Positions 4,523 through 64,000 of a stretch of 64,000 bases of DNA are shown piece by piece. The DNA comes from an uncultured Candidatus Saccharibacteria bacterium (GTDB taxonomy: Bacteria > Patescibacteriota > Minisyncoccia > Phycocordibacterales > XYD1-FULL-46-19), in the NCBI GenBank assembly GCA_964639285.1, contig CAZXCI010000002.1, positions 45,660 to 109,659 on the forward strand, read 5' to 3'. A program made the translations under genes and the position numbers. Numbering within the stretch: the stretch's first letter is position 1; the number at the start of each line of letters is the position of its first letter. The notes under the pieces were generated by a model that saw only the letters and a program-made list of their open reading frames with translations, did not search any database and had not been told where the DNA came from.

Positions 4523-4727
4523 CCTCTTAGTTTAGCACATTTTTCAAAAAAAGTTTTTATTTTTTATCTTTAGGCTTAATATGCTCCTGATAGAAGAAGT
4601 AAGGGAAAGCCACTATGAAAATCATCAGATGAATATCCATAGCTAATTATTTAGAAAATCAAACACGGTACCGTTATTATAGAAGAAAACTGTCCTTAAA
4701 GTCAAAAAAGTGTATAATATCTAGATT

Positions 4728-9842: not shown

Positions 9843-9934
9843 GGAGAGGTGGCTGAGTGGTCGAAAGCGCCTCACTGCTAACGAGGTAGGGGTCTTAAAG
9901 CCCCTCGAGGGTTCGAATCCCTCCCTCTCCGCCA
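9843..9934 (+). tRNA. tRNA-Ser (anticodon GCU)
   Basis: GGAGAGGTGGCTGAGTGGTCGAAAGCG... with a long variable arm, anticodon loop CTGCTAA, acceptor GGAGAGG/CCTCTCC, discriminator G and an encoded CCA. Confidence 0.85.
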
Positions 9935-10028
9935 AGACAATTTAGTATCGGTGTGACCCGAGTGCTTTAGAAGGTCTCGGATCTGTAAAACTTATGGATT
10001 TGAAGTAAGATTGTTTTGTTGTGAAAAA

Positions 10029-11765: not shown

Positions 11766-11770
11766 TCATT

Positions 11771-14035: not shown

Positions 14036-14258
14036 ATTTTTCTAATTAAAAATTGACTATTTTTATTTTAAATTTACGACTTTATTAATATCATTCTAAT
14101 TTTACCACAATTAACGATGTATTCACAAATGCCTAATTATGCTCGGTGAGTAATGTCAACGTCTTATCTTTGTATACAATCCTCGATCTCAAGTTTGCCA
14201 ACAATTCTCGCTTTTCGATAGTCGTTCCTTCCTTCAAAATATACTTGGCATAATTACG

Positions 14259-14777
14259 AATGTCGGTTTCTTTGTTATTTTAGATCTTTTCAGTCGAGCC
14301 AAGCACCGATCGCTGAAATATTTTGATTATATTTATGCTGTTCTACACTCGCCGAGTTATCGTGAGAAGTACAAAGAATTTCTCAAAATAGATTTTCCTC
14401 GCGTGCCATATCCAAAAGACAAGAAGCAGTTTGGGGGACTAGTTACGCTCGGTCGTGAACTGCGAGAGATTCATCTGCTCGAATCACCAAAAGTAAGCGA
14501 GTTTATTACGACCTATCCAGTTTCCGGTTCAGACACTGTTGAGAAAATCTCATATAAAAATGGCAATGTATATATAAATGTCGAGCAGTATTTCGGTGAT
14601 GTCCCAGAAGTGGCCTGGAACTTTTATATTGGTGGTTACCAACCGGCGCAAAAGTGGCTCAAAGACCGCAAAGGCCGTACCCTCACCAATGGAGACATCG
14701 AACACTATCAAAGAATCATCGTAGCCCTAGTGGAAACGGACAGGATCATGAAAGAAATTGATAGGGTGATTTTGTAG
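14259..14777 (+). pseudogene. C-terminal remnant of a type IIG RM / BREX PglX-like N6-adenine DNA methyltransferase
   Basis: A 172-codon ORF begins directly after an in-frame stop. It encodes ...YFDYIYAVLHSPSYREKYKEFLKIDFPRVPYP... and ...YIGGYQPAQKWLKDRKGRTLTNGDIEHYQRIIVALVETDRIMKEID, the conserved C-terminal module of type IIG/Eco57I/MmeI/PglX-type methyltransferases. The upstream roughly 900 aa of the enzyme is missing. Confidence 0.65.
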
Positions 14778-14829
14778 CACAAAAACACCATACTTCCAAT
14801 ATTTTAGATGTCAATAATATCAACAGTGC

Positions 14830-15552
14830 ATGTTTGCATTTTATACACAGGTTATGTACACTTTAGATATGAGCACTAAATACGCATCATTTATAAAATC
14901 CCTTAGAACAAAAAGGGGTATTTCACAGTCAACAGTGGCCGAAAAACTCGGACTCTCACGCCAATCATACATGGCTGTGGAGCGGGGAAGGCGAGAGATG
15001 ACCTTGCAGGAGGCAGAAAAATTATGTGAACTATATGGTATCTCAATTGAGGAACTTTCAAAAGTAACAGCCCCACAGTACGAAAAATATAAGCAGATGA
15101 TTCTGGTGTATCTCAAATATCCAGTATCAAGGGATGGACGAGTGCCAAAGACGAAACTTGCAAAACTCCTCTATCTTGCTGACTTTGCTTGGTATTACGA
15201 GAAACTGGAAAGCATGAGCGGAATGCAGTACCTGCGTCGCGTTTACGGGCCTGTTCCTGATCCATACTTCCGAGCACTTGACGAACTCGAAGAGGAAGGA
15301 AAGATCGTCGTAGACCGCAGGGGAGACGCGATGCTTGTATCTATTGGTGCAGGAGCGAGCCGTCAGAAACTAGATCTCCTTCAGAGTGATGAGGTTAAGC
15401 TTATGAAAAAGATCTCCACAAAGTGGAAAGATAAAAGGACTCAAGAAATTGTCGATTTTACCCATGAACAGCTTCCATATAAACTGTGTGCACCCGACGA
15501 GGCTATCCCCTACGAACTAATCACACAGGAAAATCCGGAATATGTCTACTAG
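14830..15552 (+). CDS. HTH (XRE-type) plus Panacea (DUF4065/SocA-like) domain antitoxin candidate
   Basis: The N-terminus has the HTH ISQSTVAEKLGLSRQSYMAVERGRREMTLQEAEKLCELYGISIEEL. The C-terminus has the Panacea-like core KTKLAKLLYLADFAWYYEKLESMSGMQYLRRVYGPVPDPY. The start could instead be the ATG at 14869. Confidence 0.6.
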   Translation: MFAFYTQVMYTLDMSTKYASFIKSLRTKRGISQSTVAEKLGLSRQSYMAVERGRREMTLQEAEKLCELYGISIEELSKVTAPQYEKYKQMILVYLKYPVSRDGRVPKTKLAKLLYLADFAWYYEKLESMSGMQYLRRVYGPVPDPYFRALDELEEEGKIVVDRRGDAMLVSIGAGASRQKLDLLQSDEVKLMKKISTKWKDKRTQEIVDFTHEQLPYKLCAPDEAIPYELITQENPEYVY

Positions 15553-15937
15553 CTATGTGGTTATTGTCGAAAAATTTGCCGAACGACACTACATCTCAAA
15601 ATTCAAGAAGAAGTATAAAAATGCTTGGGATATTACATGGAACGCTATCACGGAACAATTCAAGCGCATTGAAACTCTTATCGGAGTAAATAGTATTGTA
15701 GAAATTATCTGTGATGCAGGAGATATAAAAATCTGCAAAACGGAATTCCGTATCGCAGGACCTGGAAAATCTCGCCATGCTTCGGGAAATAGATGTATTA
15801 TTGCGGTGCAGAAAAGCACCGCAATTGTGCACACGCTTCTTGTGTATTCGAAAGGCGACATCAGTGGAACGAATGAGACGGCTGGGTGGAAAGCCATTGT
15901 CAAAGATAACTATCCAAAATATAGAGGACTCCTATAG
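15542..15937 (+). CDS. Putative toxin partner of the Panacea-domain antitoxin (novel small protein)
   Basis: 131 aa with an 11-nt overlap with the upstream Panacea gene, which is typical TA operon architecture. No confident family assignment. Confidence 0.45.
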   Translation: MSTSYVVIVEKFAERHYISKFKKKYKNAWDITWNAITEQFKRIETLIGVNSIVEIICDAGDIKICKTEFRIAGPGKSRHASGNRCIIAVQKSTAIVHTLLVYSKGDISGTNETAGWKAIVKDNYPKYRGLL

Positions 15938-16260
15938 TTTAGGATAATCAACCTCGTTTTTCCCCTCAGCGGACTTCGGTTTTGGAACCTCAAACTATTC
16001 AGGATGTACTTTGTAGATAGCCCTTAGTTTCTGTATACTTTTATCAAGATTCTCGAATTTGAGCCATACTTTTGGTTCAAAGTTGCGGACATCGTCTTCG
16101 CCAAGTTCTACATTCAGCGAAATTGAAAGATGTTGCCTCTAAAAAGTCCTTCTCGAAAAAGTTGTGGAGAAGAGTTTTTTCTGTTAAATCTAACTTTCTG
16201 TTAAAATATGGGTATCGGCAAAATGTTTATATTTTGTCTTTTATGAATTGAGACAAACTT

Positions 16261-18861
16261 ATGGAATTTGATATTCAAAAGAAAAATTTCTGGCATCTTT
16301 CGCCCGAGGAGACAGCTCAGCTGTTAGAAATAAATACTGAGAGGGGTTTATCTGCTCAAGATGTCGAAGACCGAGTGGCGACTTTTGGTCGAAATACCTT
16401 CGAGTCAACAGAGAGAGTGGGGAGATTAAAGATTCTTCTCCGACAATTAAAAAGTCCTCTGATTCTTATCCTTATTGGAGCGGGGATTGTCACACTTTTC
16501 ATCGCTCATTATCGGGATGCTATTTTTATTTTTTTCTCCGTTGTTGTCAATTCTCTGCTTGGTTTCTGGCAGGAGAATAAAGCCGAGCAGGCTTTGTCTG
16601 AGCTGAAGACTTATCTTAAACAAAGAGCGAGAGTTATTCGTGACGGCAAGGAACGAGAGATTGATGCCGAAGAGCTCGTCCCGGGCGACATTATTCGATT
16701 TGCTCAAGGTGATCGTGTGCCGGCGGATGCCCGAATCACTTTCGCGAACGAATTACAAATCGACGAGTCGGTGCTCACGGGGGAATCTTTGCCTGTCGCC
16801 AAAACAAGAGACAAAATACTTGATTCGGTAAAGATTGCTGATCAGACCTCGATGATTTTTGCTGGCACCTTGGTCACTCAGGGAGTAGGGACAGGGATTG
16901 TTTGTCGCACGGGTTCGAATACTGAGCTGGGGAAAATTGCCTCGCTCATCGCCAGTTCGGAGAACGAGAAGACATCTCTGCAGAAAGCGATTATAAAGTT
17001 TAGTCTCACTCTCAGTGCTATTCTTGGATTCTTGACACTCGCTGTCTTTATTGTTGGGATACTTTCTGGTCGGTCAGGGTTGGAGATGTTTCTCACTTCG
17101 GTGGCGATTGCTGTGGCGGCGATTCCTGAAGGTTTACCTATTTCTATGACCGTAATTTTGGCGGTGGGGGTGGAGAGAATGGCCAAACGTAAGGGAGTTG
17201 TTCGTAAACTTATTGCCGCAGAAGCTTTGGGTGGGACAACCATTATTTTAACAGACAAGACCGGAACTTTGACCATGGCTCGGATGGCTCTGTCTAGGAT
17301 TATTCCCTTTGGATCGAGTGAAGGGGAGATATTAAAGCGGGCTTTAGCCAATGCCATGGTTTTAGTTGAGAACCCAGAAGATTCTCCAGAAACTTGGCGA
17401 ATGGACGGTCGAATTATGGAGACGACATTAGTACGCTCGGCTGGGGGGTGGGGATTATCAGTCGATGAGATATTGGACAAGGGTCATGTTCTCCAGACAA
17501 GACCTTTTAACTCAGCTCAAAAGTTTTCGGCCTCTCTAATAAAGGAGTCTGATCGACATCTGGTCGTACTCTTTGGGGCGCCAGATATCTTGATTAAGCA
17601 TTCTTCGCTTGATGAGCAAAGAAGGAGGGAACTTCTCGATCAGATAGACAAACTGGCTTCATCTGGAGAACGAGTCCTCGGTCTGGCAACCAAAGAAATT
17701 TCAAACATAGACGATTTTTCCTTGTCTAAAGATTTTGATCCTATCGGCCTATCTTTCGATGGCCTTCTTACCTTTCGAGATCCTATTAGGCCGGGGATTA
17801 AATATACGGTCGAGCGTGTTGAGCGGGCGGGCATTAAGACGGTCGTCATGACCGGAGATCATCGGGGAACGGCGATTGCCGTAGCGAGAGAGATAGGCTT
17901 AACTATCGATAAGCGATCTGTGCTTGATGCTTCTGAATTAGCGATTCTGTCAGATGAAGAACTGAAAGATCGATTGCCTTATTTGTCGGTAATTTCACGA
18001 GTTACCCCTTCTGACAAACTTAGGGTTGCGAGGCTCTTCCAAGAATTAGGTGAAGTTGTCGCGATGACGGGGGATGGAGTTAACGATGCGCCAGCTATCA
18101 AACAAGCTGATGTCGGTATTGCGATGGGATCGGGTACAGAAGTAGCACAAAGTGTCGCTGATCTTGTCCTTCTTGACGATAATTTTGAGACAATCGTAGC
18201 CGCGATCGAAGAAGGGCGTCAGATTCTTGGCAATATCCGCAAGGTGTTAGTGTATTTTCTCTCAAACACAACTGATGAGCTCATTCTTATTGGAGGATCA
18301 ATTCTGGCGGGGATTCCTTTACCTTTGAATGCCCTTCAGATTTTGTGGGTCAATTTCTTTACTGATAGTTTCCCGGCTATTGCTTTTGCTTTTGAGAGAG
18401 AGGAAAATAGTCTTTCTCATAAACCCCACAGTAAAAAGATGGTACTCTTTGATCCACTAATGAAATTTCTCATTTTAATCATTGGTGTCTCAACCAGCGC
18501 TTTGTTGTTTGTCATTTATTTCGTCTTGTTGCGATTAGGATATGAACCCTCTTTTGTCAAGACGTTTACCTTCGCAGCCTTTGGGATATATACTCTTCTT
18601 GTGGCTTTCCCCATAAGAAGTCTCGGTAGGGGCATCCTGTCTTATCCTTTGTTTTCTAATCGGTATCTTTCTGGTGGGATCCTAATCGGTTTTGTTCTCA
18701 TGGCGGCGGCTGTTTATCTGCCAACCTTCCAGGATCTTTTTGGAACAGTTCCCTTACCATTTCCTTGGGTCGTCGGAGTGATTTTTATTGGGCTGTTTAA
18801 TGTCATCCTGATTGAGTTTGCTAAATTATTTTTTAGAATCAAATCAAAAAAATATGTTTAA
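16261..18861 (+). CDS. P-type ATPase, Ca2+/cation-transporting (type IIA-like)
   Basis: 866 aa with DKTGTLT phosphorylation, TGDHRGTA and TGDGVNDAPA motifs, and about 10 TM helices. Confidence 0.9.
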   Translation: MEFDIQKKNFWHLSPEETAQLLEINTERGLSAQDVEDRVATFGRNTFESTERVGRLKILLRQLKSPLILILIGAGIVTLFIAHYRDAIFIFFSVVVNSLLGFWQENKAEQALSELKTYLKQRARVIRDGKEREIDAEELVPGDIIRFAQGDRVPADARITFANELQIDESVLTGESLPVAKTRDKILDSVKIADQTSMIFAGTLVTQGVGTGIVCRTGSNTELGKIASLIASSENEKTSLQKAIIKFSLTLSAILGFLTLAVFIVGILSGRSGLEMFLTSVAIAVAAIPEGLPISMTVILAVGVERMAKRKGVVRKLIAAEALGGTTIILTDKTGTLTMARMALSRIIPFGSSEGEILKRALANAMVLVENPEDSPETWRMDGRIMETTLVRSAGGWGLSVDEILDKGHVLQTRPFNSAQKFSASLIKESDRHLVVLFGAPDILIKHSSLDEQRRRELLDQIDKLASSGERVLGLATKEISNIDDFSLSKDFDPIGLSFDGLLTFRDPIRPGIKYTVERVERAGIKTVVMTGDHRGTAIAVAREIGLTIDKRSVLDASELAILSDEELKDRLPYLSVISRVTPSDKLRVARLFQELGEVVAMTGDGVNDAPAIKQADVGIAMGSGTEVAQSVADLVLLDDNFETIVAAIEEGRQILGNIRKVLVYFLSNTTDELILIGGSILAGIPLPLNALQILWVNFFTDSFPAIAFAFEREENSLSHKPHSKKMVLFDPLMKFLILIIGVSTSALLFVIYFVLLRLGYEPSFVKTFTFAAFGIYTLLVAFPIRSLGRGILSYPLFSNRYLSGGILIGFVLMAAAVYLPTFQDLFGTVPLPFPWVVGVIFIGLFNVILIEFAKLFFRIKSKKYV

Positions 18862-54538: not shown

Positions 54539-54555
54539 GGAATTTCATCGAACTT

Positions 54556-54574
54556 ATCAAGGCACGCCCTTGAT
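54556..54574. repeat. Subterminal hairpin ATCAAGGCACGCCCTTGAT (left end of RAYT copy 2)
   Basis: A 7-bp stem. Near-identical copies occur at 55275-55297 in the same orientation and at 54763-54781 (inside the ORF) in inverted orientation. Confidence 0.6.
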
Positions 54575-54605
54575 GATCCCTGCATCTGGGGGTATAATAC
54601 TGATT

Positions 54606-55271
54606 ATGCAAAGGAGTTTTTCTTTTGGCCCGGGAGAAGTTTATCATCTTTATAATCGGGGGGTTAATAAACAAAGGATTTTTTCGGGTGACCATGATCG
54701 CTTTCGTTTTTTGATACTTATGTATCTTTGCAATAGCAAAAAAGATGTTCATGTCAGCAATTATCAAGGGCGTGCCTTGATGGACTACTTTACTATTGAA
54801 AGGGGTGATCCTGTGGTTGAGATCATGGCTTATTGTTTGATGCCAAATCATTTTCATCTGTTAGTGAAAGAAAATAAAGAGGGTGGTATTTCTAGATTTA
54901 TGCTTAAACTTTTGACTGGTTATGGTATGTATTTTAACAAAAAGAACGAAAGAACTGGGCCAATTTTTGAGGGGCGTTTCAAGGCTAAGCATGTTGTTGA
55001 GGATTCTTATCTAGAGTACCTGTTAGCTTATATTCATCTAAATCCAGTGAAAACAAAAGATGAAAAAGGTTGGGATGAAAAGAAGATTTTCAAGACTAAA
55101 ATAGCAAAAGACTTTTTGAGTTCGTACCGTTTTTCTAGCTATCAGTATTTTTTGGGTCAAAATCGTTCAGAAGATCGCATCCTCAATACCACTTCTTTGC
55201 CTAAGGAGTTAATTGATGGTCAGAAAGATACAGATGATTTGATAAACATATGGTCAGAATTTGAAGCCTGA
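54606..55271 (+). mobile_element. IS200/IS605-type Y1 (HUH) transposase, RAYT-like, copy 2
   Basis: HUH motif HFHLLV and Tyr in YIHLNPVK. It is roughly 45% identical to copy 1 by eye. A TATAAT at 54592-54597 lies 8 nt before the ATG, so the mRNA is probably near-leaderless. It is flanked by hairpins at 54556 and 55275. Confidence 0.75.
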
Positions 55272-55357
55272 TTACCATCAAGGTACGCCCTTGATGGTCA
55301 GGTTAATTTGGTGAGGCTTGGATTTTGGTCAATTTTTTGCTAAATTGTACTAGTTAT

Positions 55358-55428
55358 TGCCGGATCGTCTAATGGTAGGACACATCCCTCTGGAGGATGG
55401 TATCTTGGTTCGAGTCCAAGTCCGGCAG
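55358..55428 (+). tRNA. tRNA-Gln (anticodon CUG)
   Basis: Acceptor TGCCGGA/TCCGGCA, anticodon stem CATCC/GGATG, loop CTCTGGA, T-arm CTTGGTTCGAGTCCAAG and discriminator G. Confidence 0.75.
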
Positions 55429-55589
55429 CACGCTAGTTTCGGTATCGAAGGACCTAAACAGGTAATAATTGTAATGGTTCTAGAATGATCTAAACTGGTA
55501 TGTGTCTTGTACATAGAACTTTTATTCAAAAAGTACCAGACCTAGACCAGTGACATTCCTAGAGGGTCAGCAGTCTAGAAAAGTATCGA

Positions 55590-58169
55590 ATGACCAAGAG
55601 GGGTCAATTTCCTAGTAACCTTCAAAATAGCTATAATTCGCACATGGAACCTCCAGAAGATACAACCGATGAATCACAGGCTTGGGTCTCAAAGATAAGG
55701 ATATGGGTGAAAAGCAGACTTGATTTTATATATGGTAAATGTAAGGAGGTAATACGTCACACCTCTAATATTTGCATTCTCTTCAAACAACAAAAGATCT
55801 TTCGCTGGGGAGTAAGGTTCAGATACCTTTTGTACAAGATTTCTCAGCATACAAAATTCCTAAGGCATATCTTTTTGGTCATTTGTGCTGTTATTCTTGC
55901 ATATTTTTTAATCCAGTTTACTGATCTTACTGATCCAAAGACCGCCTCAATCTCGAGTTTTGCAGATTATCTTTCAACAATAGGGGCAATGGTAGGTGGG
56001 GTGTTGGCCGTTGTGTTTTCATTGACCATATTTGGACAGCAGAGTATTTTGGATGTTCATTCAACAAAATTGCTTCACAAGTATGTGTATGGAATACGAG
56101 AGAAGAGCACTTTCTTTGGGATAAGTTTCATTACGTTGCTTTTCTTCGTGGCTAGCAGATGGTCGGCGAATGTAATCGAGCCCAACCCAGTTACATACAG
56201 CATTTTAATTTACGGATCCTCTATGCTCGTGGCGGTAGTCTTCGTATTAGTTGATCTGCTTTACCAGCGAGTCAGTGGCAAATCTTCCTCTGCTGAGATA
56301 TTCGGCTTCCTACAGAAAGAAAGTCTTGCGGTTTTGAAGAAGATAGATAAATACTCGCAACGTCTTGTAAACATTGGCGTTGCTGAGGGACGAGTGAAGA
56401 AACAGGAAGTTCAGATGGGCCTTCTAAAAGCTCAGAGTCGAGCTGCCGTATCTAAGACATTTCGAGCCGAACTAGATGAGAAACTCAAGGTTATTTATGA
56501 AATTACAGTTCGTCTTATAGCACGCAAGGAGTACGAACCTGCAAACAACGGGCTGCGCACTTTGCACGCTGTTATTAGGGAGTATCTATTACTGGTCAAA
56601 GATTCTTCGACCTCAATCCCTGCAAATAGTAGTTCTCTTGGTGTGTTGGGTTTACTCGCTCGGCAGAGTGATAGCGTTGATTTCCTGAATACCAACTTAG
56701 AACGTTTGGCTCGCATTGGGGAACAAAATGTTCTGAATGAAAATGTACAAAATCTTCAACTTGTAACGGATGTTTTTAAAGCCCTTGTTGCTCAAGCTGA
56801 GAGTATCAATCATGTTGGAAACGATACAGAAAACTACATTCTTCCCCTGATTATCGGTTATCAGACTGAGTATCTTGAGTTCGCCATTCTCCAAAATAAT
56901 CTCGAATCTGTCTGGCAAACAGCTCAAGCTCTTGATAACATGGCAGGATCTGCGGTTCGAGGAAAGTCTCAACAAGCACAACAGCAGATTAGAGAAAGCA
57001 TAGACAAGGTAATTCTGTTTGGAATCAAGAACGACAGAAGCTTTGTAATAAATGAATGTATGAATGCGGTGCTTGTTAGCATCATGTCTTTGTTCCATGA
57101 CAAGATGCCTTACGCATATACCTCAATTGATGATTCCCTAAAGCAAGTTGCAGCAAAGACGGAGCTGATTTATGTTGGAGTAAAAACAGGAATACTTACT
57201 GATCAGTTCACTACCACTCATTTCTTCACTCAGTGGTTGATTCATTTCCCAGTTCTTATAAATCAGTATCAGGATATAGTGGACAAGCGTGAAAAAGAAA
57301 GCTACCGAGAGAAACTCATACAAACAACAAAAGGCCTACAAAGACAACTCCGGCACATCTCTGAGAACATCAAAGATGTAGATAATCCGCTCGTTGAAGT
57401 TATTGGTAGAGTTATAGATGCTATGGGGGAATACCTTATATATTTCCTAAACCATCCGGATTTTATAGACGAGAAACGAGAAATCGAGAAAGTCCTTTAT
57501 GGCTATATTCATTTACCAGGATGGTTTGTTCATCATGCAACAACATACGAAAAGAATAATCAAAACCGATCTCTTGTTGAAGCCATAACAAAAATAGGCA
57601 TTTTTTTATTTGAAAAGTATCGCGATGAACGTCTCATCGAAGCTTGTATTGATTCCTTGTTTACTTTAGTGAAGGCGCTTTTTGAAAAGAATCCAAAATC
57701 ATACTTGTTCGATGAAGCTCGTGTAATGGTTAAGATTTGTTATCTCGGCGTTTTAGCAAGGAAGCACAGCATGAAGAGACTTTATGCTCTTGTGCGTGTA
57801 AAGATTCTTGAATTCGATAGATTGTACGCGGCTGCATATCAAAAAGAACTTAAAAAAGTACCTCAAGATTTGCGTGCTCAAATTGAAGCAAGAACAGTTT
57901 ATGGCTTCCCTGATAAAGAACGACTAAAGCAGGAGGTCTTTGCTTGGCGAAATGACGTGTATCGAGATACTAGTGGTGGCATGGCTCGCATGATGGGTGA
58001 TTCTCGAGGAATTGTTCAAGATTCTGTTACTATTGAGGACATTGATTGGTTTATGTGGGAAGTCTGGAGTGAGATTGACGCGTCCAGCTCGATCTCTGAT
58101 AAGATAGATTTGCAGTGGGCCAGAGAGCGTCTTTCGAAGACTTTAAGAAAAATTGCTGATGGAAAGTAA
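55590..58169 (+). CDS. Large (859 aa) hypothetical membrane protein with extensive cytoplasmic alpha-helical domain
   Basis: Four predicted TM helices within residues about 90-230, then roughly 600 aa with no recognised motif. It converges on the serine recombinase and overlaps it by 27 nt. Confidence 0.45.
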   Translation: MTKRGQFPSNLQNSYNSHMEPPEDTTDESQAWVSKIRIWVKSRLDFIYGKCKEVIRHTSNICILFKQQKIFRWGVRFRYLLYKISQHTKFLRHIFLVICAVILAYFLIQFTDLTDPKTASISSFADYLSTIGAMVGGVLAVVFSLTIFGQQSILDVHSTKLLHKYVYGIREKSTFFGISFITLLFFVASRWSANVIEPNPVTYSILIYGSSMLVAVVFVLVDLLYQRVSGKSSSAEIFGFLQKESLAVLKKIDKYSQRLVNIGVAEGRVKKQEVQMGLLKAQSRAAVSKTFRAELDEKLKVIYEITVRLIARKEYEPANNGLRTLHAVIREYLLLVKDSSTSIPANSSSLGVLGLLARQSDSVDFLNTNLERLARIGEQNVLNENVQNLQLVTDVFKALVAQAESINHVGNDTENYILPLIIGYQTEYLEFAILQNNLESVWQTAQALDNMAGSAVRGKSQQAQQQIRESIDKVILFGIKNDRSFVINECMNAVLVSIMSLFHDKMPYAYTSIDDSLKQVAAKTELIYVGVKTGILTDQFTTTHFFTQWLIHFPVLINQYQDIVDKREKESYREKLIQTTKGLQRQLRHISENIKDVDNPLVEVIGRVIDAMGEYLIYFLNHPDFIDEKREIEKVLYGYIHLPGWFVHHATTYEKNNQNRSLVEAITKIGIFLFEKYRDERLIEACIDSLFTLVKALFEKNPKSYLFDEARVMVKICYLGVLARKHSMKRLYALVRVKILEFDRLYAAAYQKELKKVPQDLRAQIEARTVYGFPDKERLKQEVFAWRNDVYRDTSGGMARMMGDSRGIVQDSVTIEDIDWFMWEVWSEIDASSSISDKIDLQWARERLSKTLRKIADGK

Positions 58170-59477
58170 CTTTTCTTTCATGTTAATTTTGCTTTTAAAA
58201 CAGGTAAGTAGATCTCGCTTCTCAAACAGTGTTCCTTCCAACAAAAGATATTTTGCATAATTTCTAATATCAGCGTCTTTTGCCGAGTAATTTTCTTGGG
58301 TTTTTCCCATAATTCCAGAGTGAAACTTTTTATGTCTCTCAATTTCGACTTCAAGCTTTTTTCTTATACCAGATTTATCTAGATCTACCTTGTCTATAAT
58401 TTTAGCCAATTGATCAATCAGAACTTTCTCCTCAATATAACCCTCCTTGCAGTTGATATCTCGTGAGCGAGTACAACCATAATAAATATATTTGGAGACA
58501 GAACCATCTTTTAAGGTCTTAAATTTCTCCTGGGCAGTTACACCAGATCCACACGCTCCACAAAAGAGAAGCCGGGTAAAAGCAAATTCCTTATTTCTAT
58601 CCTTTGCCTTTACTTGCAAATGAAGTTGGGTTTGTACTTGGTCAAATAAACTCTTCGAGATAAGAGGCGTATGTTTACCTTGAAACCATCGACCACTTTT
58701 CTTTGGGTATTCAAAGGCCCCATAGTAGAAATGACTGTTGAGGATTACGTAGATGTTACTAAGCGTAAGAGACTTTTCGTTTCGTGTTGTAAATTTTATC
58801 TCCTTGAGCCATCGATACACTTTTCTGCCACTCCATCCCTCGTTGCCAACTTTTTGAAATATTTCTTTCATAATCGGAGCACGATCTGGATCAACAAAGA
58901 CAACACCTGGTTGGTCCTTGTTCTTCGAGTTAAGGTATCCAGTAGGGGCAACGGATGGCCAAAGTCCCATTTCGCACCGAGTTTTTAACCCTCGTTTAAC
59001 ATTCACACTCTTGTTGTCGTTTTCAAGTTTAGCCTGTGATCCGAGAATCATGAGGAGGAATTTTTCGTTTGGATTGTTAGTAAATCTTTGACTGTAGGTT
59101 CTAATTTCGATTAGTTTTTTCTGATCAAGTAAATCTACCAGTGCGCCCAGATCACCGGCGTTTCTAGAAAGACGATCAGGATGCCAGACAAGAATACTGT
59201 TGAATTTACCCTCCCTAATATCTGTGAGCAGTTTATTAAAAACCGGTCTTTGTCCGCAATCTTTCGCAGAGTGTGATTCTCGATACATGTCAGCCACATT
59301 GATGCCCTCTCGCTGAGCAAGGGTCAACATTTCTTTGATCTGGGAGTCAATCGACAAGGCCTGCCTTTCTTCAGCCTCGCTCGATTTACGGGCGTATAGG
59401 CAGTACTTGAGGGGAATTACTGCTGGTACCTCGTCAGTCGCTTGTAGTGGACTTTGTATTTGCACAACACAACACAT
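58143..59477 (-). mobile_element. Large serine recombinase (resolvase/integrase family)
   Basis: An N-terminal resolvase catalytic domain with YARKSS (Ser nucleophile) and the conserved R, D, R residues, then a recombinase domain and a zinc-ribbon (LLFCGACGSGV...YYGCTRSRDINC), then a coiled-coil C-terminus. Confidence 0.8.
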
Positions 59478-59593
59478 ACCGGGATTATTTCTATTAGTCT
59501 AGCTTGAGGAGTTGATAACTAAGGAATCACCAAAGAGGCAATAAATTTCTTGCCCTAAAATCACTACAAAAATAACGCTATTTATGCTATAAA

Positions 59594-60349
59594 TTGATTA
59601 TGGAAAAAATGCCAGACGGCAAAGAAATTGAGCAAAAAGAATCCCTAGGTAAGGCTATTGGAAGAATAACGGTTATTAGACATGGGGACACTAGATATAC
59701 CGGTGATTATCCCGATCTAACAGAGCAAGGAATTGAGCAGATTTCTGCCCAAGCTGATACTTTGTCTGACGAGGTTGACCAAAACAAAGAAGAGATAATT
59801 TTTGTTTCTTCCCCAACCCCCAGGACTAGAGGGAGTATGGACATAATAAAAGAAAAGCTAGGTTTGGCTGAGCAAAGAACAAATGTTGTGCATGGAATTC
59901 GAGGTATTGACGTCAAAGATATGCCTAAAGCATTGGATATTATTAACGAGATAATGGGTGATGGTTTTGATTTAACTAAGATTGATCGAGCTTACGCTAC
60001 CGAAAAAAGATTTGAAGAAATGCCTGACGTTTGGGAAGCCCCATCAAACGTCGAAAAAAGATCGCTTCGCGCCCTAGAGTATGCGATTCGTGGATTAATT
60101 AAGGCCAAAGAATTAACCCCAGATAGAAATCCCCACATAGTTGCAACCTCCCATTTTGAGATTGTTGATCTTCTTTTGGCTAAAGTTTTTTATCGTGAGC
60201 CTGGTGATTTTCCACCCGGATCAAGAGTTGATCTTGCCTTATTTGAAAGCGAACAAAATCCTCAACAAATTAACATAGAAGTCACTTTTAGAGGTGAAAC
60301 GAGGAGTGCGATATTCAATCGTGAATCAAGAACAATCGAGAATATTTAG
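59594..60349 (+). CDS. Histidine phosphatase superfamily protein (PGAM-like)
   Basis: RHGDT catalytic motif (VIRHGDTRYTG) and a second His in TSHFEIV. Confidence 0.6.
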   Translation: MIMEKMPDGKEIEQKESLGKAIGRITVIRHGDTRYTGDYPDLTEQGIEQISAQADTLSDEVDQNKEEIIFVSSPTPRTRGSMDIIKEKLGLAEQRTNVVHGIRGIDVKDMPKALDIINEIMGDGFDLTKIDRAYATEKRFEEMPDVWEAPSNVEKRSLRALEYAIRGLIKAKELTPDRNPHIVATSHFEIVDLLLAKVFYREPGDFPPGSRVDLALFESEQNPQQINIEVTFRGETRSAIFNRESRTIENI

Positions 60350-60350
60350 T

Positions 60351-61370
60351 ATGGATAACTACAATAAAATTATTGAAGCGTTTAAAAATGGCGATATCGC
60401 AGGACTACCAGAGTCTGGCTCTAAACCTGAATATTTGCAAACTGAAATTTCCCACATATTTCTCTTTCCACAAACCGTTTTCAAGTTCTATCGTCGAGAT
60501 AGTAAGGGTTTTAACGAATACTTTTTTGATTTAAACGATAACGATAAGAGAAAAAACTTTTATCAAGAAGAGTTTATTTCTAATCATTATTTTAATCCAG
60601 AAGTCTACTCAAAATTGATGGGGTTAAAAATCGACGAAGGCCAAGTCTTGATTTTTGAGAATCTCGACGATGTCGAAGATAGAGTTATTCAGATGAAGAG
60701 GATCAATGCCGATAATAACCTGACAAACATTTTATTGCATGGGAAATTAAGTTCAGAAGATTATTACAAAATTGGAGATCAAATGACTAAGGCGCTGATT
60801 GGGTTTAATAAGGGGAAAGAGCTAGATGGCAATTACTACGAAATAATGGTCGCTTTTCTAAATGATCTTGAAAATTATCTTTACCTGTATGATAAAAATA
60901 TTTCCCGCGAAGAGTCTGGGCAAATTATGGTAAGTTTGAGGAAATTCTTAGAAGAGAACAAAGATCGTTTTGTTGACGCATCAAGATCGTTAATTGAAAC
61001 AATCGACAACCATGCCGACAATACTTACTACAATGACAATAAGGTTTCTTTTATTGATGCTTACTTACCCAAAGACAGTTGGCGAATTGTCGAGCCACTT
61101 TACGGCGTCTATCGACTACTTACCGATGTCGCCGCCTTGACCAATGACGAGACGGCGGAGCCAATGTTTAAGGGCTTTCAAAATAATTATCCAGATCTTC
61201 AATTTGATCTTGAACTGGATACTTTTTATAAGATATATTTTGCTTGCATTCGAGTTGGCCATTTTTTTGAGATTGCTATGAGAGACGCTTCAAACTACGA
61301 CGTTGCTAATCGTTACTTGGATTTTATAAAGAAGAAATTTTTATTACTAAATAATGGGAGATTACGATAA
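60351..61370 (+). CDS. Hypothetical protein (possible kinase-like fold)
   Basis: 339 aa from the ATG at 60351, directly after the upstream stop. The HG-containing segment NILLHGKLS weakly recalls APH-type phosphotransferases. Confidence 0.35.
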   Translation: MDNYNKIIEAFKNGDIAGLPESGSKPEYLQTEISHIFLFPQTVFKFYRRDSKGFNEYFFDLNDNDKRKNFYQEEFISNHYFNPEVYSKLMGLKIDEGQVLIFENLDDVEDRVIQMKRINADNNLTNILLHGKLSSEDYYKIGDQMTKALIGFNKGKELDGNYYEIMVAFLNDLENYLYLYDKNISREESGQIMVSLRKFLEENKDRFVDASRSLIETIDNHADNTYYNDNKVSFIDAYLPKDSWRIVEPLYGVYRLLTDVAALTNDETAEPMFKGFQNNYPDLQFDLELDTFYKIYFACIRVGHFFEIAMRDASNYDVANRYLDFIKKKFLLLNNGRLR

Positions 61371-62055
61371 AATCGCTGAACAGTATGCTGCCTACGGCAA
61401 AATAGTCACTACTGACTGGCTACTTGGGCATATGGGTGTGGCTAGATTATTAGAGCCGATCGCCGGCAAAAAGATTCTCGATTATGGCTGTGGCAACGGT
61501 AAGTTCAGCGTCTATTTACAAGACTCAGGAGCTGAGGTTGTTGGGGTGGACATATCGGCTAGCCAACTGGAAGTGGCCAAGAGAGAAAACAGCGAAAACA
61601 TAACTTACCTTCTAAGCAACGATCCAGTAATAGAGGAAAAATATACTGGCTACTTTGATGTCGCTGTTTTGATTTTTGTACTTTGCGAAAACTCCTCTCA
61701 GGAGAAGATTATTTCCATTCTCAAAAGGGTTCATCGTTTACTTAAGCCTAATGGCCAGCTAATTGTTTTGAATCCAAATTGGGATAAGAGTAATGGTAAG
61801 GATTTTATGACTCATCAAATGCTCTTTACTCCAAATCTTACGCCAGGCAGTAAAGTTACGACAATTTTAAAAGGGCCTTCGCCAATTGAGATACCGGATT
61901 TCTATTGGTCAAAAGATAATTATTTAGAGATGCTTAAAGTTTCTGGTTTCAATAATTTTAAGATTTCAGAACCATTGGCTTCCGACAATGAAAGAGAGTG
62001 GAAAGACGAAAAAGAGTTTCCGCCTTATCTCATCATTAAGGCTCGGAAAATCTAA
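61354..62055 (+). CDS. Class I SAM-dependent methyltransferase
   Basis: Motif I ILDYGCGNGKFS, a motif II acidic residue after the beta2 strand (VVGVDIS), and motif post I/III LLKPNGQLIVL. Confidence 0.7.
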   Translation: MGDYDKIAEQYAAYGKIVTTDWLLGHMGVARLLEPIAGKKILDYGCGNGKFSVYLQDSGAEVVGVDISASQLEVAKRENSENITYLLSNDPVIEEKYTGYFDVAVLIFVLCENSSQEKIISILKRVHRLLKPNGQLIVLNPNWDKSNGKDFMTHQMLFTPNLTPGSKVTTILKGPSPIEIPDFYWSKDNYLEMLKVSGFNNFKISEPLASDNEREWKDEKEFPPYLIIKARKI

Positions 62056-62109
62056 AAATTGTACCTAACCAATACTAGACAAAGATTCTTTTGCATTTCA
62101 GACCAGATA

Positions 62110-62139
62110 TTGACAGTATGTCTTACATGTGCTAGGATT
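62110..62139 (+). promoter_or_regulatory. Consensus sigma70 promoter (TTGACA, 18 nt, TAGGAT)
   Basis: It marks the start of a GC-rich (about 55-58%) segment. The downstream RBS GGAAGGAG precedes the ATG at 62248. Confidence 0.5.
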
Positions 62140-62247
62140 ACAGACAGAGCATGAAGGAGCTTCCTGGCTTCTTGAAATAGAGTTATTTACCTAGGGTCTT
62201 CAGCATCACCCTCTTGAAAAGGGGTGTGACAACGGAAGGAGTCGGTT

Positions 62248-62670
62248 ATGAATTGGATTATTGCGATGGCGTTGTGCTTCATCTTATGGAGCGTCTATGC
62301 AATCCCTGGAAACTTCGCCGAGAAGGTTCATGGGGTGTCGGTGAACATGCTCTTCGAGACAATCGCGTTCGTAGGGGTAGCTATCCTCTTGAGCGGGAGA
62401 ATCTGTGAAGGGTTGCCGAGAGTCACGGCTGGCTCTGCCACCTTAGGGTTGCTCATGGGATTAGGGTCAGCGGTCGGCTTCTACTTCTTCTTGACCGCCC
62501 TAAGTCTTGCACCGGGGACAAAGGGAATCGTTCTCGTCGTCCTGGTTGCCGGAATCACTTTTCCCATGCAAAGCGTCCTGTTCAGCTTCTTTGGTGAGGC
62601 CTTGAGCCTTCGCCAGTGGCTGGCCATCGTCGGGATGGGAGTTTCCCTGATCGTCTTCAACTGGAAGTGA
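62248..62670 (+). CDS. Small 4-TM transporter (EamA half-size / SMR-like DMT protein)
   Basis: 140 aa with four hydrophobic helices and a strong SD. The terminator 62684-62727 follows. Confidence 0.55.
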   Translation: MNWIIAMALCFILWSVYAIPGNFAEKVHGVSVNMLFETIAFVGVAILLSGRICEGLPRVTAGSATLGLLMGLGSAVGFYFFLTALSLAPGTKGIVLVVLVAGITFPMQSVLFSFFGEALSLRQWLAIVGMGVSLIVFNWK

Positions 62671-62683
62671 ACTTCCTCCCCTC

Positions 62684-62727
62684 CGCCCGCAGAACCGTCT
62701 GGCTCTGTCGGGCGGTTTCTGTTTTTA
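62684..62727 (+). terminator. Rho-independent terminator
   Basis: Stem CCGCCCG...CGGGCGG followed by TTTCTGTTTTT. Confidence 0.65.
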
Positions 62728-62769
62728 TGTAAAGCTAGTCCGAACTTTATATGCCCATCGGAGCCAAGA

Positions 62770-62798
62770 TTGACATACCGGTTCAAATATGTTAACAT
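62770..62798 (+). promoter_or_regulatory. Consensus sigma70 promoter (TTGACA, 17 nt, TAACAT)
   Basis: It lies just upstream of the AAGGAGG RBS and the ATG at 62822. Confidence 0.5.
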
Positions 62799-62821
62799 AA
62801 GAGGTAGAAAGGAGGTGTCCC

Positions 62822-63418
62822 ATGGACATCACATTGTGGTTCGGAGTAATTGCGGGCCTTATGCATGTGACAGCATTCGTTCTTTACAACAAGCAGATGC
62901 TTCGGGGAACTTCGGTTCCCAATGCGGCGACGTGGACACTTTGGGCTTTCCTTACGGTTCTGAATGTCTCAAGCTATGCGGCAATGAGTGGAGATCTCGT
63001 CAAGAGTATCTTGCCAGCCGCCAGCTCGCTCGCCTGCATCGCAACATTCTTCTTCTCCTTGTATAAAGGAAAGTTGTCGCGAATTGATACCTGGGATGGA
63101 ATTGCTCTGGCCATTGGGGCAGTATCAGGAATCGTCTGGTGGTGGTACAAATCCGCGACCTATGCCAACCTGATACTGCAACTATCGGTCGCGATCTCTT
63201 TCGTTCCGACCTATCGCGGCGTTTGGAGAAATCCCAGTGTCGAGAAGGCCTTTCCCTGGTATCTCTGGAGCTCTGCGTACATTTTGAGCATTGTCGTGAT
63301 CATTCTGCGCTGGAATGGCCAGTATGTCGATCTGGTTTACCCGATCAACTGCCTGTTCCTTCACTTGGCGGTGGGGCTTCTCACTGTCAGAAAGATTCCG
63401 ACGCCTGCTCATGCCTGA
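62822..63418 (+). CDS. Hypothetical polytopic membrane protein (about 6 TM), GC-rich
   Basis: 198 aa, Trp-rich and hydrophobic, with a perfect SD AAGGAGGTG 6 nt upstream. Confidence 0.5.
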   Translation: MDITLWFGVIAGLMHVTAFVLYNKQMLRGTSVPNAATWTLWAFLTVLNVSSYAAMSGDLVKSILPAASSLACIATFFFSLYKGKLSRIDTWDGIALAIGAVSGIVWWWYKSATYANLILQLSVAISFVPTYRGVWRNPSVEKAFPWYLWSSAYILSIVVIILRWNGQYVDLVYPINCLFLHLAVGLLTVRKIPTPAHA

Positions 63419-63557
63419 TACATACATGCCCCGACAGAGAAGCTTTGGCTCTCTGCCGGGGCTTCTTCGTTCATTGAAATATAAAAATTTTTCTGATATT
63501 CTAAAATCACAATTGAATATGGTGGCCTAAACCTACGCTTTTCAATTAAGGCTAGGC

Positions 63558-63680
63558 ATGGCTCAAAGTCCCGATGAAGACACTGAACCCCGCGTTCAGC
63601 AACTCTTCATCGGGCCATATCGGGAAACCGGTATGGGGTCGCAAGACCTAGCTAGCGCGGGGCTTAGTGTATATGAATGA
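63558..63680 (+). other. Structured GC-rich leader with a 40-codon upstream ORF preceding the T5orf172 gene
   Basis: Long stem CCCGATGAAGA...CTCTTCATCGGG (63570-63614) with an internal hairpin. GNRA hairpin GGTC-GCAA-GACC (63637-63648). The ORF MAQSPDEDTEPRVQQLFIGPYRETGMGSQDLASAGLSVYE has a stop that overlaps the downstream ATG. Confidence 0.3.
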
Positions 63681-64000
63681 AATAATCTACATTTTAACCA
63701 ACGAAGCCATGCCGGGGTATATTAAAATCGGGATGACTAATAATTCTCTAGAAGAGAGAATTCGGCAGTTAGACCGAACAAATATCCCGTTGCCTTTTGA
63801 GTGTTATTACGCTTGTGAGGTAGAAAATGCTCACGAGGAAGAAAGATGGCTCCACTCAGTTTTTTCCGATCGAAGAGTTCGAGATGGTCGCGAGTTTTTT
63901 CAAATTGACCCAGAAAGAGTCGTTACGGCCATTCGAAGAGTTCAGAAAAAAGATATAACGCCGAAGAATTTTATTAACACCACTAAAGAAGAAGAAAAAG
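63673..64000 (+). CDS. T5orf172 / GIY-YIG-like domain protein (partial; continues past the window end)
   Basis: MNEIIYILTNEAMPGYIKIGMTNNSLEERIRQLDRTNIPLPFECYYACEVENAHEEERWLHSVFSDRRVRDGREFFQIDPERV matches the T5orf172 (GIY-YIG-like) pattern VY.L.N.AMPG..KIG.T...eeR..eL......P..f...Y...v.....E..lH.....RV...REFF. Confidence 0.7.
   Translation, partial: MNEIIYILTNEAMPGYIKIGMTNNSLEERIRQLDRTNIPLPFECYYACEVENAHEEERWLHSVFSDRRVRDGREFFQIDPERVVTAIRRVQKKDITPKNFINTTKEEEK

Follow-up and report, generated by a model that had tools for sequence, protein, structure and literature searches.

What has been inserted behind the glutamine tRNA gene of this uncultured Patescibacteria genome, how was that site chosen, and what does the inserted DNA carry? 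We addressed these questions in a 64,000-nt stretch of contig CAZXCI010000002.1 (the window; Table 1), the right-hand end of which an earlier note, made from the letters alone, had described as an integrated element comprising a large serine recombinase (LSR), an 859-aa membrane protein, several enzymes, a membrane cassette and a T5orf172 gene. For our analysis the sequence was extended to window-equivalent position 66320 by Logan contig L002, which is 100% identical to positions 55375-64000 (L numbers denote the loci and contigs compared). We found that 55.4-59.6 kb is probably the module through which a phage-like Patescibacteria element integrated at the 3′ end of tRNA-Gln, with a flexible island of uncertain ownership to its right. 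The proposed integrated element holds up for the tRNA-proximal 4.1 kb, where we found a conserved unit and the geometry typical of the recombinase's own clade, and is only plausible for the remainder, for which no distal attachment (att) site was found.

The core of this module emerged from comparison with related loci, at each of which the 859-aa gene and the LSR form a unit of about 4.1 kb with different flanks. DNA similarity between the window and L009 was limited to positions 55568-59281, and similarity between L007 and L095 was limited to a block (88% identity) that contains the LSR and an 845-aa homologue of the 859-aa protein and extends from 52-71 nt before the LSR to a tRNA-Met. To the left of this block the two loci are unrelated, with DNA methylases, HNH and HATPase genes in L007 and with methylases and RadC in L095. 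All four closest clusters of the 859-aa protein family (the window's counted) have an LSR as neighbour, in varying arrangements: L009 has the same convergent pair with the same 27-nt overlap, its other neighbours being SNase, a TerS-like helix-turn-helix (HTH) protein and a ParB-methylase; L007 and L095 have the LSR followed in tandem by the 845-aa gene; and in L012 the LSR is divergent, a DUF2726 gene separating the two. These comparisons support a view in which only the 859-aa gene and the LSR appear to behave as a conserved unit.

Judged from its sequence, the LSR is very probably an intact large serine integrase. It matches the Pfam domains Resolvase (PF00239, 1.3e-24), Recombinase (PF07508, 2.2e-15) and Zn_ribbon_recom (PF13408, 5e-6), and its best PHROG is the integrase family phrog_95 (1.9e-69). 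The catalytic serine in YARKSS and the zinc ribbon that had been read from the translation were both borne out, with R30 and S32 of the motif invariant across three homologues and the zinc-ribbon cysteines C306, C309, C335 and C343 invariant among the homologues. The closest solved relative is SPbeta SprA/YokA, and the best NCBIfam matches are CcrA/B/C (CcrB, 3e-37), at 128 bits versus a family cut-off of 900.

A scan of IMG/VR provided 78 viral-contig loci as a sample of the LSR clade, about 60 of them at 45-64% identity. The clade LSR usually closes a gene block of fixed order, ParB-N6/N4 DNA methylase, TerS-like HTH protein, TerL, LSR; among the 78 loci the ParB-methylase was present in 48-51, TerS in 44 and TerL in 37. 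This architecture supports the assignment of the window's LSR to a large clade of phage-borne integrases. L009 and L007 keep the ParB-methylase and TerS, with other genes replacing TerL, and since the window has none of the three block genes and these two loci only some, they would be eroded versions of a common phage-like element. A bipartite motif with the consensus GTTAYCAAC-N8-20-CTRGACT(Y)CC precedes the LSR start by 20-100 nt in the window and at L007, L095, L129, L131-L133, L149, L167 and L175, across clade protein identities of 45-70%. The homology between L007 and L095 begins exactly at this motif, which marks the upstream edge of the conserved LSR module and could serve as promoter or operator or play a part in recombination. 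Five IMG/VR contigs carry two clade LSR genes tens of kb apart, namely 3300000970_000154 (L128/L139), 3300014205_009253 (L125/L146), 3300042286_000458 (L156/L158), 3300032737_000190 (L159/L161) and 3300009873_002614 (L179/L180), which may represent tandem elements or two integrases per element. A literature search returned no paper on Patescibacteria prophages with serine recombinases.

The position of the clade relative to tRNA genes then pointed to the site of integration. A tRNA lies downstream of the LSR in 16 of the roughly 60 in-clade loci, at a distance of 0.1-4.7 kb, and in four of these at only 120-152 nt, with no other gene fitting in between. All 16 have this first tRNA on the opposite strand with the two 3′ ends facing (binomial p = 1.5e-5), and the integrase stands at one end of the element, beside the chromosomal junction. 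The tRNAs concerned are those for Gln (CTG, TTG), Ser (three anticodons), Asp, Glu, Trp and Asn, to which L095 adds Met, with the LSR followed there by the 845-aa gene and then by a tRNA-Met of opposite strand. The window repeats this geometry, tRNA-Gln and the LSR facing each other with their 3′ ends and the 859-aa gene filling the gap.

These junctions also share a sequence signature. GACC was found 18-24 nt past the tRNA end in 12 of 15 LSR junctions versus 2 of 68 control tRNAs taken from genomes of like kind (Fisher p = 4e-10). Measured from the T-arm GTTCGA through GACC, the junctions are 43-52 nt long, most often 47-48. Because GGTTC and GACC are near reverse complements, the junction forms an imperfect palindrome of about 48 bp centred on the tRNA 3′ terminus. 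Serine integrase att sites are short, about 40-50 bp, and since the size and symmetry of the junction are those expected of such a site, we read it as att. On balance, the 15 junctions suggest that tRNA 3′ ends, marked by a definable junction motif, are where the LSR clade integrates, and we infer the corresponding att junction of the window at 55407-55454, which would make the 859-aa gene part of the element, occupying the space from the att site to the integrase 3′ end.

In the mechanism that we propose, the T-arm and acceptor strand of the tRNA, with the universal GGTTC, would be the chromosomal half-site (B arm), and the GACC side, with its motif roughly 20 nt beyond the tRNA, would be the half-site contributed by the element, corresponding in the window to the part after 55429. 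Crossover would take place at or next to the tRNA terminus, and the invariance of the T-arm would let relatives of one integrase use many different tRNAs. The three degenerate GACCTAGACGGGT copies between tRNA-Gln and the 859-aa gene are all the matches that the window contains at up to two mismatches, with 0.63 expected window-wide, and related copies flank a 253-aa gene beyond the window.

Similar arrangements were noticed at other tRNA genes. Partial tRNA-like ends were seen in L007, L145, L128 and L166. In L007, three repeat copies of 60-148 nt (12599-12676, 14256-14403 and 16611-16780) lie beside tRNA-Met, interleaved with partial tRNA-like 3′ ends, and set two mini-islands (GDSL lipase/tRNA_bind; Fic) apart from the block of LSR and 845-aa gene; this looks like tandem accretion at one att site, and in L095 the block abuts tRNA-Met directly. 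Within the window itself, tRNA-Ser(GCT) at 9843-9934, one of the two control matches, is followed by the flank TTTAGTATCGGTGTGACCCGAG with GACC at +21, which differs little from the LSR junctions of L131, L128 and L132. No LSR was found at 9843-16000; the 10-16 kb interval is a low-GC tetranucleotide outlier encoding a PGA_cap/FG-GAP protein, DUF3160, a 124-aa C-terminal Type ISP restriction fragment and an HTH_3+SocA_Panacea antitoxin. The interval 9843-16000 was probably left as a scar by a second element of the LSR type.

Several observations weigh against an integrated element at tRNA-Gln and against its att model, and are gathered here. Three junctions without exact GACC read GACT, GACA and CAAC, the att model is built on one junction type, and provirus trimming in IMG/VR could enrich tRNAs at contig ends, but would account for neither the strand bias nor the GACC spacing. 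Up to 66320, neither a distal att site nor a partial copy of tRNA-Gln was found, the LSR is the sole firm phage gene of the window, and the compositional signal of foreignness for the island is weak. A 158-aa protein encoded beyond the window matches the PHROG 'terminase small subunit' only weakly (3e-6). The pair of genes for a histidine phosphatase and a 339-aa protein to the right of the LSR is present in relatives at 68-77% identity, at other chromosomal places and with no LSR. The empty site hoped for in relatives was recovered neither by way of PyrG, whose exact sequence matched no record, nor from an FtsX-anchored genome scan, since the window's own species is missing from the representative genomes and the relatives, at species or genus level, are too distant for flank alignment and their sequences past the tRNA do not align. 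Contig breaks at tRNA-Gln (start of L002 at 55375, end of L005 at 55394, end of L013), considered as a sign of polymorphism or excision, were rejected, because the tRNA is nearly identical across related genomes and such breaks are hence not evidence of excision.

The search for the far end of the element deserves a fuller account. Direct repeats of the tRNA-Gln 3′ end or att-like repeats, which had been anticipated for an integrated element, were not convincing across 55.4-66.3 kb. Three candidates were set aside: the 10-nt sequence AGACCTAGAC common to 55538 and 65398, which has background frequency over 2.3 Mb of loci, though its copies cluster around the 253-aa gene; matches to the regular expression GGT(T)C-N35-42-GACC, which were at chance level; and the T-arm-like GGTTCGAGTC at 65430 on the - strand, which has no complementary stem and was not accepted as a tRNA remnant. 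The 158-aa protein was likewise rejected as the TerS of the clade, as it is not BLASTP-similar to clade TerS. Genes for TerL, capsid, tail and ParB-methylase were absent from 55.4-66.3 kb. What is present is therefore not an intact prophage. Since terminase, capsid and ParB-methylase genes are missing and a distal att site was not found, there is about an even chance that the element is degenerate.

The strongest alternative is that the mobile unit is only the 4.1-kb two-gene cassette, placed at the tRNA-Gln end of a pre-existing flexible island whose other genes are resident. Homology between loci does end at the edges of the two-gene block, and the LSR 5′ flanks differ even for 88%-identical blocks (DNA methylase in L007, RadC in L095). 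The occurrence of the phosphatase/339-aa pair without an LSR elsewhere in relatives fits such an island, as do the weakly similar counterparts of the methyltransferase and the 198-aa membrane protein that relatives have near their own tRNA-Gln. Set against this, the clade LSR normally follows TerL in a large element and the upstream LSR motif is internal to intact elements; the 116-nt spacer between the LSR and the phosphatase gene has no att-like GGTC...GACC; and the order of the pair varies (convergent, tandem, or divergent with DUF2726 between), which fits module shuffling better. We therefore regard a free-standing cassette as possible but distinctly unlikely. For reasons of the clade's normal architecture and of the internal position of the upstream motif, a degenerate element of at least 9.7 kb with a replaced interior is preferred over a minimal cassette.

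What the element carries next to its integrase is a protein without annotation. The homologues of the 859-aa protein begin at M19, which makes 55644 the probable true start. The protein has no Pfam, PHROG or NCBIfam match, and the family members likewise bear no Pfam domain and no name except 'hypothetical protein'. A word-indexed protein search found four other clusters at 81, 73, 71 and 44% identity, making five close clusters with the window's, and a full HMMER search, run with the five-member profile over 1.84 billion representatives, gave 250 clusters at E <= 1e-3, of which about 100 are full length (750-850 aa); a word-index search with a 79-sequence profile found no members beyond the five close ones. 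The four transmembrane (TM) helices and the helical domain of about 600 aa without known motifs that had been read from the translation agree with a confident AlphaFold model built from 79 sequences (pLDDT 91, pTM 0.81), which consists of a basic N-terminal helix, the four TM helices (about residues 90-231) and an all-alpha solenoid of about 630 residues. Given the even TM count and the basic N-terminus, the solenoid should be cytoplasmic. TM2, with GAMxGGxLAIVFSLxIFxQQ, is the most conserved part of the family, and D361, N415, R588 and D817 are other conserved polar positions. A profile search of PDB sequences with the family returned only designed helical repeats. One 845-aa member, P0006 (in the cluster of P0003), is deposited as protein MEK6840277.1 of a Nanoarchaeota archaeon metagenome-assembled genome (MAG) on a 3.5-kb contig; its archaeal assignment is probably a binning error, because near-identical copies lie on bacterial contigs with GatCA and LigA.

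The neighbourhoods of this family point towards defence. About 12 of 25 distinct family loci have an integrase no more than 3 kb away. Besides the closest ones, LSR-adjacent members were found at L115, L100/L116, L111 and L108, and a tyrosine integrase followed by a DUF488 gene is convergent to the family gene in four distant loci (L103, L104, L108 and L109); the pairing of DUF488 with tyrosine integrase is itself recurrent. The genes directly upstream are very often those of restriction-modification (R-M) systems, including hsdM-hsdS-hsdR at a 3-nt gap (L104), Eco57I/MmeI-type enzymes (L098, L102), a FokI-cleavage-domain protein (L109) and ResIII (L099). L108 has a C5-methylase and a Vsr-like gene, the latter called from sequence alone, and DNA methylases are neighbours at L007, L010, L094, L095 and L103. 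On viral contigs, AbiV lies two genes after the family gene in one case, and in L094 the family gene follows a holin and an amidase gene (a lysis cassette). No 859-family gene was found within 6 kb of the LSR in any of the 78 LSR-clade loci, so that the gene appears optional and not needed for integration. Because the family stands repeatedly beside integrases, serine or tyrosine, and R-M genes, we tentatively propose that the 859-aa protein is a defence or exclusion accessory of the resident element, a reading by association to which we give slightly less than an even chance. Its cytoplasmic alpha-solenoid would be a sensor or binding platform, and the highly conserved glycine-rich four-TM bundle would be a membrane effector or gate, comparable to Rex-type or superinfection-exclusion systems.

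Other results count against a defence role. The 859-aa protein matches no PADLOC 2.0 model at E <= 0.01, Foldseek comparison of its model with PDB and BFVD returned only designed circular or toroidal repeat proteins and karyopherins (TM-score <= 0.24), about half of the family loci show no integrase, and all of the support for defence comes from gene neighbourhood. The protein might instead serve the life cycle of the element, by membrane tethering, by control of lysis or of DNA entry and exit, or as a directionality or regulatory partner of the recombinase. The tight linkage to two unrelated families of integrase, with 3′ ends that often overlap or nearly abut, would suit such a role, as would the place of the gene after holin and amidase genes in phage contig L094 and the lack of a match to any known defence model. 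The absence of the gene from all 78 LSR-clade loci, by contrast, makes it dispensable for integration, excision and packaging; its neighbours are mostly R-M and Abi (abortive infection) genes; and it persists in the window, where no phage functions remain. A life-cycle role is accordingly rather improbable in our estimate, and the defence or exclusion reading is retained as the tentative one.

The convergent overlap between the recombinase and the 859-aa gene had been pointed out as a possible means of coupled expression or antisense control, and the overlap proved to be exact, at 27 nt. It is kept in L009 (27 nt) and in L115 (31 nt), where the membrane protein is only 23% and the LSR 56% identical, and is absent in L007, L095 and L012. 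No terminator was predicted between the two genes. Convergent transcription would therefore collide, and it is a plausible inference from this arrangement that expression of the accessory gene could damp that of the integrase.

The overlap raises the further possibility that the 859-aa gene is a host gene targeted by the LSR, with the att site in the 27 nt, as integrases target comK, sigK and rlmH. The LSR 3′ end does overlap the last 9 codons of the gene, and family C-termini diverge after about residue 840. This is nevertheless very improbable: no 859-family gene is present at the relatives' locus, family members were met on phage and viral contigs, the LSR of L007 and L095 precedes the gene, and the tRNA junction motif accounts for the site without the gene. 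That the LSR is an invertase flipping the 859-aa gene as a phase-variation switch, as the convergent orientation in the window, L009 and L115 and the tandem one in L007 and L095 might suggest, is hardly credible, since a search at seed 7 found no inverted repeats flanking the gene, loci of different orientation are 27% apart in protein sequence and so do not reflect switching within a population, and the LSR carries full integrase-type C-terminal domains. The idea of an invertible segment was rejected for lack of these repeats, and the differing orientations are taken as evolutionary rearrangements.

Comparison with relatives showed on which side of tRNA-Gln the conserved chromosome ends. The genomes nearest to the window's in the FtsX-anchored scan are Candidatus Paceibacterota MAGs (FtsX 81-83% identity) and Vogelbacteria MAGs (FtsX 63%). 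The order RF1-FtsE-FtsX-PyrG-(RAYT)-tRNA-Gln is kept in L013, L014, L017 and L018, and gene content 3′ of the tRNA is distinct in each relative genome. None of the fetched stretches contains the 859-aa protein, the LSR, the phosphatase, the 339-aa, 140-aa or T5orf172 proteins or the downstream genes. The sole matches to island proteins are a methyltransferase at 34% identity in L014 and a relative of the 198-aa membrane protein at 25% in L015, located near PyrG/tRNA-Gln. The earlier note had named a syntenic gene order, recombinase included, in distant relatives as the finding that would make the region core genome; no relative has this order, which supports the view that the region is unlikely to be core. 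That the whole stretch is nonetheless ordinary core genome with a domesticated or decayed recombinase could draw on the weak compositional signal and on the divergence of the phosphatase/339-aa pair, which is similar to that of core genes, but is scarcely tenable in view of the missing gene order, the wholly different flanks of the 859-aa gene and LSR in other organisms, and the intact LSR.

The RAYT gene, already reported beside tRNA-Gln, lies between PyrG and the tRNA in L017, a Vogelbacteria relative, as well (71% identity). This shared position sets the left boundary of the element at the tRNA and suggests that RAYT predates the LSR element at the locus. RAYT is flanked by near-identical palindromes ATCAAGG(C/T)ACGCCCTTGAT at 54550-54572 and 55277-55300, with a related copy within the gene at 54762-54785; these are REP-like elements. 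L015 and L016 have tRNA-Gln (L016 also PyrG) in reversed orientation with respect to FtsX, from which 5-6 kb of unrelated genes separate it. In this lineage, the surroundings of tRNA-Gln are a hot spot of rearrangement.

Table 1. Features of the tRNA-Gln region, in window coordinates.
Feature	Position	Strand or placement	Evidence and remarks
RAYT/Y1_Tnp gene, IS200-like Y1 transposase	54570-55271	upstream of tRNA-Gln	open reading frame (ORF) + profile match
tRNA-Gln (CTG)	55358..55429	+	ARAGORN; same tRNA after PyrG in L013, L014, L017, L018
Candidate att junction, 48-bp pseudo-palindrome	55407..55454	+	T-arm GGTTC (55407) to GACC (55451-55454)
tRNA-to-859 intergenic region, three degenerate GACCTAGACGGGT copies	55451..55604	+	copies at 55451, 55539, 55592
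859-aa protein gene	55590..58169	+	ORF; true start probably 55644 (841 aa)
Overlap of the two convergent 3′ ends, 27 nt	58143..58169	.	ORF coordinates
Large serine recombinase (LSR), 444 aa	58143..59477	-	Pfam, PHROG matches
Bipartite non-coding motif upstream of LSR start (GTTATCAAC...CTAGACT)	59496..59519	-	recurs upstream of clade LSRs
Histidine phosphatase (branch 1)	59594..60349	+	Pfam His_Phos_1 5e-8
339-aa protein, family-less	60351..61370	+	ORF; 10 homologous clusters
Class I S-adenosylmethionine-dependent methyltransferase, 233 aa	61354..62055	+	Pfam Methyltransf_23/25/31/11
140-aa membrane protein	62248..62670	+	ORF; promoter-like site of its own, strong terminator 62692-62718
198-aa membrane protein	62822..63418	+	ORF; promoter-like site of its own
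T5orf172/MUG113 (GIY-YIG-like) gene	63673..64000, full end 64266 (197 aa)	+	Pfam; completed from L002

The genes to the right of the LSR make up the island of uncertain ownership. The histidine phosphatase and methyltransferase named earlier were recovered as Pfam matches, the former with the PF00300 match and VIRHGDT at residues 27-33 (RHG motif) that characterise branch 1. Its partner, the 339-aa protein, is also open from 60294 as a longer 358-aa form starting at a GTG inside the phosphatase gene; it has ten homologous clusters and was always found paired with a histidine phosphatase. It matches nothing in Pfam, NCBIfam, PADLOC or PDB sequences, and the label 'kinase-like' could not be substantiated by any profile, going back to the by-eye pattern HxDxxxxN...D: the NHADNTYYN...FIDAY of the protein resembles the HxDxxxxN loop and metal-binding Asp of aminoglycoside/choline-kinase-like folds.

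Elsewhere, this pair directly follows SmpB-tmRNA in L200 at 74% identity (3135-6420: tmRNA, 143-aa gene, phosphatase, 335-aa gene, 112-aa gene, IF3), a locus at which the GACC junction motif is absent, and it stands beside fucose isomerase in another MAG; tmRNA is a classic integration hot spot. In L111 (13134-14441) a 435-aa fusion of two methyltransferase domains, 65% identical in its first half to the 233-aa methyltransferase, lies 4 kb from an 859-family gene and LSR. Such varied placements mark the pair and the methyltransferase as flexible island genes, which might but need not belong to the LSR element.

The 140-aa membrane protein has no family match in Pfam, NCBIfam or PADLOC scans. 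The T5orf172 gene, which had been seen to run past the window end, was completed on L002; its product matches Pfam PF10544 (3e-19) and, over residues 2-196, PADLOC PDC-S57 (PDLC05041, 2.2e-68). It lies 5.5 kb from the integrase and gives the surroundings of the 859-aa gene a further gene of defence type, though PDC-S57 is itself only a candidate system. Beyond the window, L002 adds a TM2-domain peptide, the 158-aa protein and the 253-aa protein, the last with a sub-threshold AGOG/HhH-like match. Copies of GACC[TG]AGAC(GGGT), direct and inverted, bracket the 253-aa gene at 10025-10900 of L002 (window-equivalent 65399-66274), with four matches in less than 1 kb versus a background of about 15 per Mb, and L002 ends within one of them; these repeats resemble REP-like or att-like sequences.

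Composition gave little indication of a boundary. GC content is 0.36-0.41 across 55-62 kb versus a window mean of about 0.43, and within 55-64 kb only the region of the 859-aa gene stands out in its tetranucleotides (z = 2.2 and 1.7), so that the compositional break proposed earlier comes down to a mild deviation equalled by that at 10-16 kb. The supposedly GC-rich, foreign membrane cassette does consist of two membrane ORFs; its foreign composition did not stand, since its GC of 0.49 falls within the 0.48-0.50 seen elsewhere in the window and its tetranucleotide composition is not outlying.

The LSR resembles the large serine integrases of temperate phages (SPbeta SprA/YokA, TP901-1, A118, Bxb1, phiC31) in its three-domain architecture and catalytic serine, and in that the genes of its clade stand at the end of a phage-like element beside the chromosomal junction. 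Serine integrases are the main tools for unidirectional genome insertion; those characterised target protein-coding or intergenic sites, and their natural targets are thought to avoid tRNA genes. The clade described here differs in being tRNA-adjacent as a whole, at no fewer than seven tRNA types. The SCC recombinases CcrA/B/C, to which the best NCBIfam matches of the LSR belong, have a different target site and element type. Among 297 precisely mapped islands of serine integrases, 14 (4.9%) used a t(m)RNA, versus 44.5% for tyrosine integrases, a use described as 'not reported previously' (PMC7192596).

Tycheposons of Prochlorococcus offer a close parallel at the level of the island: 27 of 937 tRNA-anchored elements carry an LSR, integrase-bearing elements occupy the tRNA-proximal island end, and degenerate elements and foreign DNA accumulate by the tRNA (Hackl et al., bioRxiv 10.1101/2020.12.28.424599). 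The window shows the same succession of tRNA, integrase module and heterogeneous island, and L007 has tandem mini-islands with repeats and partial tRNA-like ends. The differences are that the hosts are Patescibacteria and not marine cyanobacteria, that the serine integrase is the rule and not the exception, and that no replication module is present and no partial tRNA-Gln repeat was found in the window or L002.

As for the accessory gene, prophages are known to encode membrane exclusion and abortive-infection proteins, such as lambda RexAB, P22 Sie and the integrase-adjacent defence genes of mycobacteriophages. The 859-aa gene is like these in standing by the integrase/att end, in combining multi-pass membrane and cytoplasmic parts and in being dispensable to the element, and unlike them in encoding a single polypeptide of about 840 aa with a large alpha-solenoid and no sequence or fold relationship. 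The 197-aa T5orf172 protein, in turn, is a full-length match to the PDC-S57 candidates of PADLOC.

The element of the window would itself be degenerate and otherwise ordinary; what goes beyond the ordinary is the tRNA-end clade and the 859 family. We consider it possible, though unlikely, that both of two things hold: that the LSR clade, as a clade of Patescibacteria phages, docks on the T-arm GGTTC, with retargeting to Gln, Ser, Asp, Glu, Trp, Asn and Met, and that the 859 family is a new single-gene membrane defence or exclusion system in the att-proximal slot. T-arm docking, if true, would be a way of selecting sites that has not been documented for serine integrases, would explain the acquisition of flexible islands by streamlined candidate phyla radiation (CPR) genomes, and would offer integrases with attB sites in nearly every bacterium. 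The 859 family, sizeable, well folded and unannotated, tracks integrases and restriction systems and is a concrete candidate for a new mechanism of phage defence or exclusion.

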